Shown here: positions 1 to 9,031 of the stretch, piece after piece
How the letters are laid out: every line of letters begins with the position of its first letter
Position numbering within the stretch: the first letter of the stretch is position 1
Source: an uncultured Acidobacteriota bacterium
Lineage (GTDB): Bacteria > Acidobacteriota > Thermoanaerobaculia > Multivoradales > SZUA-115
Length of the DNA: 64,000 nt
Reading direction: 5' to 3'
Assembly (NCBI GenBank): GCA_963805975.1
Contig: CAWDVR010000002.1
Span: forward strand, 960,001 to 1,024,000
Notes under the pieces: generated by a model
Database searches by the model: none
Told to the model about the DNA's origin: nothing
The model's input: only the letters and a program-made list of their open reading frames with translations
Made by a program: the position numbers and the translations under genes

Positions 1-656
1 GCGGCGTAGTCGGCGTACTGGACGGGAAGCGGCGGCAGCGCGGCCTCGCGGCCCGCGAGCCGCGCTTCGTAGAGCGCCACCAGCTCCGACCGCAGCACGC
101 CCGAGGACCAGGCGTCGAAGACGATGTGATGGGTGGTCGCGAGCAGCAGGTGCTCCTGCGCGCCGAGCCGCACCAGCCTGCGGCGCTGCAGCCAGCCGGC
201 GGCGAGCGCGAACGGGCGATCGGCCTCGCGGCCGGCGAGCTCCAGGGCCACGCCTTCGCGCGCCGGCTCGGGAAGCGCCGAAAGATCGATCACCGGCAGC
301 GGCAAGCGCCCTGCCGGCGGCGGCGAGATCGCCTGCACGGGCGCGCCGTCGCGTTCGACGATCGCGGTGCGCAGCGTCTCGTGGCGGCGGACGAGCGCGG
401 TCAGCGCCTCGGCCAGGGCCACCACCTCCAGCGCTCCCCCCAGCCGCAGGTGGGTGGTGAGGTTGTAGGAGGCGGTGCCCGGAGCGAGGCGGTCGAGGAA
501 CCACAGCCGCGCCTGGGCGAGCGCCGCCGCCGGCTCCGTCCCCGGGTCGCGCCGCGGGATCGCCTCGGGCTCGCCGGCGCGCTGGCGCAGGCGGCGGCGC
601 AGGGCCTCGCGCTGCGCCGGCGTAAGGTCCGCGAGGCGGGCCGCGAGATCGGTCAC
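1..656 (-). CDS. NRPS, N-terminal part with condensation domain (continues beyond window start)
   Basis: Manual translation from GTG at 656 (GTGA overlap with upstream stop at 653-655): [23 protein letters not shown]...AQARLWFLDRLAPGTASYN...RRHETLRT...THHIVFDAWSS...LPVQYADYA; these are C-domain core motifs. Confidence 0.9.
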   Translation of the reverse strand, partial: MTDLAARLADLTPAQREALRRRLRQRAGEPEAIPRRDPGTEPAAALAQARLWFLDRLAPGTASYNLTTHLRLGGALEVVALAEALTALVRRHETLRTAIVERDGAPVQAISPPPAGRLPLPVIDLSALPEPAREGVALELAGREADRPFALAAGWLQRRRLVRLGAQEHLLLATTHHIVFDAWSSGVLRSELVALYEARLAGREAALPPLPVQYADYA

Positions 657-7478: not shown

Positions 7479-9031
7479 GCCGGCCCCGGAAGCGGCGCCG
7501 GCCCGGCAGCCGGCCCCAGGGCCGATTCGGAGCCTGGTTCGAAGGTGGCGAGCGGCGTGCGGCGGAGGATCTCCCGCACCGCGAGCACCAGGCCGAGGAC
7601 CTGGCCGGCGAGCGACAGCAGCACCCTGCCCACCGGGCCCGGCAAAGGCATGCCGCTGAACGGCAGCACGGTGGATAGGACGATCCAGGCGAGCCCCACC
7701 CCCACGTAGGTCCGCGGCCAGGCCGGCAGCTCGGGCACGAGGAGGAGGAGGAGCAACAAGGGACCGAAGAGGGCGTAAGCGTCCGGCTCGAAGGGGCTGC
7801 GCAGGGCGGCCAGCGTGAGGAGCGCGAGCCAGATGCGCGCCTGGCGCAGCCGCGTCGCTCCCGCCACCCGCCGCGCCGCCACGACCGCCAGCCCGACCAG
7901 GAGCAGCGTGTAGACAGTCCCCACCAGCTTGGGCGCCGCCGGCCCGGCCTCGGGCAGGCCCAGGAGCGGCAGCTTCCACACCAGGCCGGGGATGGTGCCG
8001 TTGATCGCCGCCACCGCCCACAGATCCTCGTTGCCCAGCCAGGCGAAGGCCTCGCCGGAGAGCATCCGCGGCAGCTCGAAGGTCAGGAACGAAGAGAACG
8101 GCGCCCAGCTCAGCCAGGCCACGGCCAGGGCGGCATACAGGGCCATGAAGGCCGCCGTCCAGGCCACGGCCCGAAAACGCCGCCGGGCGGCGAGCTCGAT
8201 CAGCAACAGTCCGGGAAACATCTTGCTCGCGGTGGTCAGGGCGAGGAGCGCGGCGCCGGTGGCGAGGCGTCCGCTCGCCAGGTAGGTCATCGCCACCAGG
8301 GAAAGGGCGAAGGTGACGAGCTGGAAGTTACCGATCTGGAGGGTGAGCACCACGGGGGTCGCGGCGAGGAGGGCCGGGAGGGTCAGCGCGACCACCCAGC
8401 CGGCCCGGCCCCCGACCCAGCGGGCCACCAGCAACACCGACGTGGCGAGCAGAGTGAGATCGAGCGCGAACCAGAGCGCCCGCCAGAACAGGAAGTCGCC
8501 GCCCAGGGCCTGCGCCAGCCGCGGCAGCAGCAGGAAGGTCGGCGGGTAGGGGTACTCGTCGACCCGGAAGCGGCCGATGGTGCCCACGTAGTGACCGGGG
8601 TCGTAGAGATTTTCGGCGGCGGCCTGGGACAGCTCGCCCGCCTTCCAGTAGGCGGAGAAGCAGGAGTGGCCGATGTAGAAGTCGTCGAACCACAGCGCCG
8701 AGTGGCCGGCCTGGGAGGGATCCGCCATGAACTCGGCGAGACCGGTGAGCCGCACCACCGCCAACAGTCCGACGGCGGTCCACACCGCGAGCAGCGCCCG
8801 GCGCCCGGCGAAGATCTCGCGGAGGGCGTGAGGCAGGCGGTGAGCGAGAGCCGGGACGGCGGCGAGCGCGCCCAGCAACGCGGCGAGCGCCGCGGCGGCG
8901 AAGGGCAGGCCGGCAGCGGCCAGCAGCACGGCGGCCACCGGCACCGCGAGCAGCAGGCCGATGCCCGCCACGACCCACCGCGAATCGAGCCCTTGCCGCA
9001 GCTCTTGCTTTTTTTCTTCTTCCACTTCCAT
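7475..9031 (-). CDS. Polytopic membrane glycosyltransferase, GT87/DUF2029-like (GT-C fold)
   Basis: 518 aa with many TM segments; motifs ENLYDP, EYPYPPTFLLL, LQIGNFQ and ASKMFPG resemble DUF2029 alpha-mannosyltransferases. Confidence 0.7.
   Translation of the reverse strand: MEVEEEKKQELRQGLDSRWVVAGIGLLLAVPVAAVLLAAAGLPFAAAALAALLGALAAVPALAHRLPHALREIFAGRRALLAVWTAVGLLAVVRLTGLAEFMADPSQAGHSALWFDDFYIGHSCFSAYWKAGELSQAAAENLYDPGHYVGTIGRFRVDEYPYPPTFLLLPRLAQALGGDFLFWRALWFALDLTLLATSVLLVARWVGGRAGWVVALTLPALLAATPVVLTLQIGNFQLVTFALSLVAMTYLASGRLATGAALLALTTASKMFPGLLLIELAARRRFRAVAWTAAFMALYAALAVAWLSWAPFSSFLTFELPRMLSGEAFAWLGNEDLWAVAAINGTIPGLVWKLPLLGLPEAGPAAPKLVGTVYTLLLVGLAVVAARRVAGATRLRQARIWLALLTLAALRSPFEPDAYALFGPLLLLLLLVPELPAWPRTYVGVGLAWIVLSTVLPFSGMPLPGPVGRVLLSLAGQVLGLVLAVREILRRTPLATFEPGSESALGPAAGPAPLPGPA

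Follow-up and report, generated by a model that had tools for sequence, protein, structure and literature searches.

An apparently undescribed peptide-assembly operon from an uncultured acidobacterium is led by a GT87-like membrane protein with a conserved His-x-Cys motif

The DNA analysed here (the window) is a 64,000-nucleotide stretch from an uncultured member of the Acidobacteriota (GenBank assembly GCA_963805975.1, contig CAWDVR010000002.1), corresponding to G000:C2:960001-1024000, where G000 denotes the genome that carries it. At its left end, on the minus strand, the window contains the first half of a peptide-assembly operon of eight genes. The first gene (7475..9031) encodes a 518-aa membrane protein of the GT87 glycosyltransferase (GT) family with a GT-C fold (Pfam GT87 PF09594, E 2.5e-15). 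It is followed by two nonribosomal peptide synthetase (NRPS) genes with condensation, adenylation and thiolation domains (C-A-T), NRPS1 (4056..7478) and NRPS2 (653..4059), and by the start of NRPS3 (1..656), whose C domain runs off the window in a frame that is continuous across its edge. Start and stop codons overlap at every junction, as ATGA between the GT and NRPS1 (7478-7475) and as GTGA between NRPS1 and NRPS2 (4059-4056) and between NRPS2 and NRPS3 (656-653). These four genes, their order and their ATGA/GTGA overlaps had been described in a first-pass annotation, and our re-reading of the junctions and domains bears this out. The acidobacterial source that it proposed likewise agrees with the organism sharing a genus with genome G001, whose contig is labelled Thermoanaerobaculia (Acidobacteriota) and whose intact orthologous cluster (locus L014) was used as the reference.

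Five of the eight operon genes lie wholly or mostly to the left of position 1. NRPS3 is a single 1525-aa frame running from window position 656 to G000:C2:956079 with the domain order C-A-T-R, in which the A domain (A3) has the code DAGDMGHVCK and R is a reductase whose best structural-database match is the terminal reductase domain of MxaA (PDB 4u7w; E 7.7e-94). A GTGA overlap joins it to a gene for an MFS exporter (G000:C2:956082-954727), after which come a cytochrome P422/DUF6875 protein (G000:C2:954701-953868; PF21780, E 7e-60), a kynurenine 3-monooxygenase (KMO)-like FAD monooxygenase (G000:C2:953831-952509; KMO matches at E 6.8e-91) and a DUF5916/CBM9-like protein (G000:C2:952471-950192), the NRPS3, MFS and DUF5916 assignments resting on Pfam and NCBIfam. 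Because they are outside the window, the product-defining reductase, P422 and KMO-like genes were invisible to the first-pass annotation. A 20-bp unit repeated three times in tandem (L001:13825-13884; G000:C2:953825-953884) extends across both the stop codon of the P422 gene and the TTG with which the KMO-like gene begins.

The A-domain motifs of NRPS1 (FDLSVFE at 5331, LNTVPS at 5215, VNLA at 5142 and an 11-residue motif at 5059) and NRPS2 (VTTLS at 1945, FDIAVLE at 1929, MQATPA at 1799 and LYGPTETT at 1646) are read in shifting frames. Stachelhaus positions placed by these motifs yielded DLFNNALTYK for NRPS1 and DILQLGLVWK for NRPS2, with identical codes in G001, in agreement with the Ala- and Gly-type classes assigned earlier from the motifs; the Stachelhaus numbering and these two labels are assignments that we presume to hold, and a literature search on the codes returned no paper carrying them. 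A short, similar helix-like motif opens all three NRPS proteins and an acidic one closes NRPS1 and NRPS2, suggesting that these may be docking ends. The C domain of NRPS1 (C1) retains HHxxxDG and matches the Txo1, Txo2 and TycC structures at E 1e-87 to 1e-69, whereas matches to RzmA/CDA-type structures are far weaker (about 1e-28 to 1e-26); we take the former group to be LCL domains and the latter to be starter domains. A domain search of the operon genes found no acyl ligase or acyl-CoA ligase-acyl carrier protein (ACP), with a donor supplied in trans remaining compatible with this result. The lipid part of the '(lipo)peptide' suggested previously is thus unsupported, the operon being without an acyl ligase and C1 being LCL-like rather than starter-like. 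In Rugamonas, an A-T loader occupies the place where the window operon has no donor for C1.

Neither the GT nor the P422 gave a match when searched directly against PDB sequences, profiles reached PimE and PIG-M, and an Atlas search yielded GT87/DUF2029 clusters only. The structural model of the GT (mean pLDDT 91.8) has as its best fold match PimE, a GT87 alpha-1,2-mannosyltransferase of the GT-C-A class (PDB 9dm5; Z 26.6, rmsd 3.7, 365 residues aligned), with which it shares 16% sequence identity. In PimE, as described in PMC12041525, the base is proposed to be D58, which sits at the JM1 tip, K195 binds the donor phosphate, and the substitutions D58A/N, Y62A, Y92A, Q163A, K195A and W319A each abolish activity. 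The segment H122-S-C124-F-S-A-Y128 of the window protein aligns where PimE has D58-L-H-V-Y62, so that the motif His122-Ser-Cys124 (8660..8668) places Cys124 at the alignment position of the catalytic Asp, with the Tyr at +4 shared. In a gapless MAFFT register (CFSAYWKAG versus DFSHYYLAA), this position is occupied by Asp in all seven canonical GT87s of the same class, and hhalign with a template that excluded the window protein gave the same pairing. The PimE alignment from HMMER instead puts D55 in the Cys124 column, but neither register yields an Asp in the window protein. In the model, a helix begins at 124 and there is no Asp in 118-143; the assignment to the Asp column is one of sequence register.

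Although the pattern used to search for relatives of the GT did not contain the His-x-Cys motif, both residues are present in 81/81 locus proteins. The family comprises 538 representatives (50% identity, profile E up to 1e-30), and among the best 150 of these His122 is kept in 145/146 and Cys124 in 144/148, with one member, P0367, having Asp in the Cys124 column. The sole near-invariant acidic residue of this subfamily is Asp158 (8558..8560; D in 143/149 representatives, and D in 80 and E in one of the 81 locus proteins), a candidate triad member or substitute base as judged from conservation. The residues expected to contact the donor phosphate are also retained, with Y162, N235 and K270 (8222..8224) matching PimE Y92, Q163 and K195 (N or Q at 235 in 149/150; K at 270 in 149/150). 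In contrast, PimE W319 and H322 of the SPxSWxHH loop become P416 and Y419 (Pro in 114/150 and Trp in 14/150; Tyr in 138/148). A search for a Ram29-like acidic DxD/DDx loop motif found D158 conserved, E159 kept in just 10/150 and D116/D117 variable. The last long helix is modelled at 466-489, and the tail at 501-518 has pLDDT <50, predicting no folded extracytoplasmic domain of the kind found in Ram29. On this evidence, the protein has a PimE-like scaffold but departs from canonical GT87s in its catalytic residues.

Ram29, MppH/I, Dbv20 and Tcp15 are likewise GT-C membrane proteins of NRPS clusters for which extracytoplasmic action is proposed, and the description of Ram29 includes both an acidic motif (E162, D163, D175) and an extracytoplasmic domain at the C-terminus (PMC4635501). 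Set against that description, the window protein ends soon after its last helix and has His-x-Cys. The proposal of the first-pass annotation that it is a Ram29/MppH-like mannosyltransferase does not hold up: Ram29-style mannosylation is not supported because Cys124 sits in the catalytic-Asp column, the C-terminal extracytoplasmic domain is missing, and the genome carries no lipid-sugar cassette.

We next consider how the GT and the operon are distributed. From genome collections, the best 80 of 193 confirmed GT relatives were kept as loci, and a FastTree phylogeny of 88 rows was built from the window protein, 80 locus proteins (one of the two at L054 being left out) and the seven canonical GT87s. 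All His-x-Cys proteins form a single clade (support 99), and the window protein falls within a 33-row sub-clade (support 99). Of the 32 loci in this sub-clade, 23 have NRPS domains in the fetched DNA and two have tailoring genes only, five show nothing but the sugar cassette up to a contig end, and two are too short. NRPS, P422 and KMO-like genes are absent from all 48 remaining loci, 26 of which have at least 5 kb available on both sides. The presence of NRPS genes near 23/32 clade members and 0/48 outside implies that the GT-like gene belongs to the pathway. The earlier annotation had allowed that the GT might group with envelope-glycan enzymes and vary independently of the NRPS; instead, it branches apart from the ordinary GT87s of its class and is co-conserved with the NRPS across phyla.

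The gene set recurs, in varying order, in Thermoanaerobaculia, Lysobacteraceae, Ahniellaceae and Rugamonas/Duganella, with complete clusters read for Lysobacter, Arenimonas, Ahniellaceae and Rugamonas. In a Lysobacteraceae sample, the GT was found in 7/150 genomes, all seven with a P422 about 21-23 kb away; P422 was found in 8/150, these seven and G213, whose P422 is 39% identical and lies within an unrelated NRPS. Genome G004 has a GT-MFS-P422-KMO-DUF5916 block on one contig and a matching terminal module on another, at the end of a 5413-aa hybrid NRPS-polyketide synthase (PKS) that closes with C-A(DAGDMGHVCK)-T-R (G004:C5:12525-28700; L114, L115). Among the 74 loci listed from a metagenome scan with generic patterns, at least three contain an A3-like domain (L149, L161 and the short L158). 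The actinomycete-like L149 (3242-21050) combines Gly-type and A3-type modules with R, P422, KMO-like and MFS genes, and also carries an O-methyltransferase, a luciferase-like oxidoreductase, a SARP-type regulator and an MbtH-like open reading frame (ORF). In L161 (8105-15991), the A3-like module is not terminal, preceding a second A domain and a reductase, and no P422 lies within 10 kb. No publication describing the cluster was found in the literature searched (most subscription papers being outside the coverage of this and our other literature searches), in line with the earlier statement that it was undescribed; the biffamycin cluster (PMC13285481) is a different one. These results imply a real cluster family that has apparently not been described so far.

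Most proteobacterial copies also contain a seven-gene sugar cassette (L027:2156-9888; L035:13793-20783) encoding an aldolase II, a nucleotidyltransferase, a methyltransferase, a GT2, a small unannotated ORF (L027:6478-7062), a membrane-phosphoribulokinase fusion and a HAD protein, of which no description was found in the literature searched. The membrane part of the fusion is GT-C-like (ALG3 in 6/8, GT87 in 5/8, PIG-M at E 1.5e-4), and cassette-bearing strains may glycosylate with a second, cassette-encoded GT-C enzyme; as a guess, we take the cassette product to be a lipid-linked ketopentose. In the Lysobacteraceae sample, the cassette marker was found in 7/151 genomes, the same seven that carry the GT. 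It was not found in G000 (96% complete), G001, G004 or G065, all four of which keep the GT, indicating that the His-x-Cys protein is retained with or without the cassette.

The fixed part of the assembly line is its end. The A3 code DAGDMGHVCK occurs in 8/9 complete third modules, the exception being DAGDMGHCCK in G001, and also in the G004 hybrid and the actinomycete-like metagenome cluster. Module 2 is Gly-type in every three-module cluster read, and module 1 varies, being Ala-type here, DIFQITLVYK in Lysobacteraceae, Val- and Ile/Leu-type in Rugamonas and an NRPS-PKS in G004. When named relatives of A3 were sought, the matches were two-module NRPSs of a generic kind that gave no clue to the substrate. 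Cytochrome P422 (DUF6875) enzymes are reported to hydroxylate free Trp at N1, C6 or C7 (bioRxiv 10.64898/2025.12.11.692455), and PMC13307353 agrees on Trp hydroxylation by this family. Besides its PF21780 match, the P422 of the operon has the heme motif RxGxVCP (as RSGAVCP), SBR1 Rx(M/L)x3Dx2F (as RHMVESDLPF) and SBR3 MxGxF (as MIGEF), and lies in an NRPS context such as the preprint reports for several clades; the main text of the preprint names no P422 from Lysobacter, Rugamonas, Duganella or Acidobacteria.

The KMO-like enzyme matches Pseudomonas fluorescens KMO (PDB 5fn0; PMC6376250) at E 7e-91 and keeps the carboxylate-binding residues described there (R84, Y98, N369 and Y404), as do 10/10 cluster copies. 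Its ring pocket retains L213 and F238 and differs by I224V, L226H and M373L, of which L226H and M373L occur in all 10 copies; A56G, F233H and H320Y are further differences. In contrast, two kynureninase-linked KMOs keep all five pocket residues (L213, I224, L226, F238 and M373), and the cluster enzymes branch as a clade separate from this kynureninase-linked type, which is present as well in the same Lysobacter and Arenimonas genomes. From this we infer that the likely substrate of A3 is an oxidised Trp or kynurenine, although a basic residue may be loaded instead. A second KMO-like paralogue in G000 (L118:10389-11900; G000:C5:285400-286900), with 46-48% identity and other pocket residues, lies in an NRPS region with pyridoxal phosphate-dependent enzymes.

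Based on the data presented above, the reading that we favour, albeit tentatively, is that the operon directs an undescribed, reductively released Ala-Gly-(oxidised Trp or kynurenine) peptide that is exported and then receives a group by cysteine-dependent transfer from a lipid-phosphate donor, catalysed by the GT-C-fold enzyme. In such a pathway, the P422 would hydroxylate free Trp, the KMO-like enzyme would add a further oxidation to the free aromatic amino acid, and the doubly oxidised product would be loaded by the invariant DAGDMGHVCK domain. The three one-module NRPS proteins, associating through their short helical ends, would assemble Ala-Gly-X, and the MxaA-like R domain would release it as an aldehyde or an alcohol; the MxaA reductase itself is said to proceed to the alcohol. 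The MFS protein would carry the peptide into the periplasm, where the GT-C-fold protein, which retains the donor-phosphate residues, would transfer a sugar or acyl group to it from a lipid-phosphate donor in the membrane, through an intermediate on Cys124, and the DUF5916 protein would handle the product at the outer membrane. We also consider a broader and more doubtful proposal, that in the large cross-phylum GT-C branch (the 538 clusters defined above) a His-Cys-Asp centre has replaced the catalytic Asp and carries out covalent cysteine chemistry at the periplasmic face, which could be glycosyl transfer with retention, acyl transfer from lipid to peptide or the cleavage of a prodrug. One sub-branch would then have been enlisted for the last step in making reductively released peptides of an unknown class that end in a doubly oxidised Trp, and in Lysobacteraceae and Rugamonas the GT-C-kinase fusion would add an unusual sugar to them.

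Several observations weigh against the favoured reading. Asp158 could stand in for the missing base, and C1 scores as LCL-like, yet the operon encodes no donor for it. In the P422, SBR2 (Dx2(Q/H)x3K) reads ENVKQELK, with the window genome's copy having Lys at the Gln/His site where 9/9 orthologues have Gln. The A3 code found no match among citable codes, and the Asp at its position 278 presumably also suits Arg, Lys or Orn. The cluster is without a TDO, though one lies elsewhere in the genome in 5/5 genomes tested. The co-conservation itself must be read with the related genomes as one travelling locus and not as independent events, and since the actinomycete-like L149 has the cluster core with no GT within 10 kb, the GT is dispensable for that core. 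Moreover, the majority of His-x-Cys relatives are stand-alone genes with unrelated neighbours, so the usual substrate of the family cannot be this peptide; these relatives (L051-L101) come from Acidobacteriota, Myxococcota, Planctomycetota, Bacteroidota and others, with a tandem pair at L054, and inspection of 32 stand-alone loci revealed no recurring neighbour gene. Lastly, NRPS1 and NRPS2 of the assembly carry frameshifts.

With respect to the GT87-like protein, it is rather unlikely, in our estimation, that it is an ordinary inverting glycosyltransferase acting on the peptide with a housekeeping polyprenyl-phospho-sugar donor and Asp158 or His122 as base, essentially the view taken earlier. 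The PimE fold, the retained Y162/N235/K270, the near-invariant D158, the coincidence of GT-bearing and cassette-bearing genomes in the Lysobacteraceae sample and the further GT2 and PMT-type genes of G000 are consistent with it, and GT-C enzymes are known to tailor peptides (PMC4635501). However, the positions at which D58A, D58N and W319A inactivate PimE are Cys and Pro here, the cassette brings its own GT-C-like domain, and its marker was not found in four GT-bearing genomes. Less likely again is that the His-x-Cys protein serves self-protection or maturation, either trapping or inactivating a reactive peptide aldehyde or acting as a membrane Cys-His-Asp hydrolase that cleaves the variable N-terminal residues. 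The spread of stand-alone relatives over many phyla, the variable front modules ahead of a fixed terminal module and the near-invariance of H122, C124 and D158 would all fit, but a plain hydrolase or trap would have no need of the donor-phosphate residues, whose conservation equals that of the Cys, the actinomycete-like cluster does without the gene within 10 kb, and no precedent for a GT-C-fold hydrolase was found in the literature searched.

Two further possibilities concern the assembly line. We regard it as highly improbable that the line is saframycin-like, with reduction of acyl-Ala-Gly followed by a Pictet-Spengler cyclisation with hydroxy-tryptophan on the last C domain, to give a beta-carboline analogue of the tetrahydroisoquinolines. 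The order Ala, Gly, then C-A-T-reductase on separate proteins, together with a hydroxylated aromatic amino acid, recalls SfmA/SfmB/SfmC, but SfmC requires an acyl-CoA ligase-ACP for its substrate (PMC6274189), which the operon does not encode. The operon also has no Tyr methyltransferases and has Trp-type tailoring genes instead, C3 retains both histidines (HHIVFDA), and G004 has a PKS module, not Gly, ahead of the terminal module. Where C3 has HHIVFDA, SfmC reportedly carries HxxxxD, and SfmD is reportedly a heme-type hydroxylase supplying the third residue of saframycin. It is also improbable, though compatible with any of the other readings, that the window strain's copy is a decaying pseudogene cluster. 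Frameshift-aware alignment to G001 counted no frameshifts in the GT, 13 in NRPS1 (between 5477 and 4629) and 23 in NRPS2 (between 2745 and 1121), on which the first-pass annotation was silent, even though the same assembly has an intact 14,225-aa NRPS frame. No intact NRPS1 from the window strain was present in the protein collection, no intact copy of the cluster from the strain was found, and one soil read run contained 7% of the words, yielding short pieces only. However, almost all 36 shifts fall within the two A domains, 35/36 are modelled as extra bases and aligned identity to G001 holds at 81-82%; the GT, NRPS3, every tailoring gene and the same-genus copy in G001 are intact, and other NRPS regions of contig C5 are likewise broken up. 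The 36 frameshifts are probably assembly errors.

The cluster turns a fragment from an uncultured organism into a testable pathway, as the same cluster occurs in cultured strains, carriers including the records Rugamonas rubra ATCC 43154, Rugamonas sp. CCM 8940 and Lysobacter sp. Root916 and cf310. For the newly described P422 Trp hydroxylases it also supplies a concrete candidate product; the preprint refers to their products in NRPS pathways as undiscovered (bioRxiv 10.64898/2025.12.11.692455). Finally, the GT belongs to a widespread family that carries the annotation GT87 or alpha-1,2-mannosyltransferase but lacks the residue shown to be essential in PimE. If the Cys is indeed a nucleophile, this would be a chemistry without report for the GT-C fold in the literature searched, and hundreds of annotations would need revising.

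Two minor features of the surroundings were also observed. G000 (contigs C1, C2 and C5) is rich in NRPS genes, with 76 condensation-domain matches and open frames that include ones of 14,225 and 7,543 aa, and its region at 190-204 kb of C5 is partly fragmented, like the window. The operon is flanked on both sides by Vps10/BNR-repeat beta-propeller genes on the plus strand (window 9156-12431 and L001:5762-9010), the one in the window being divergent from the GT gene, and G001 also has such a gene upstream.

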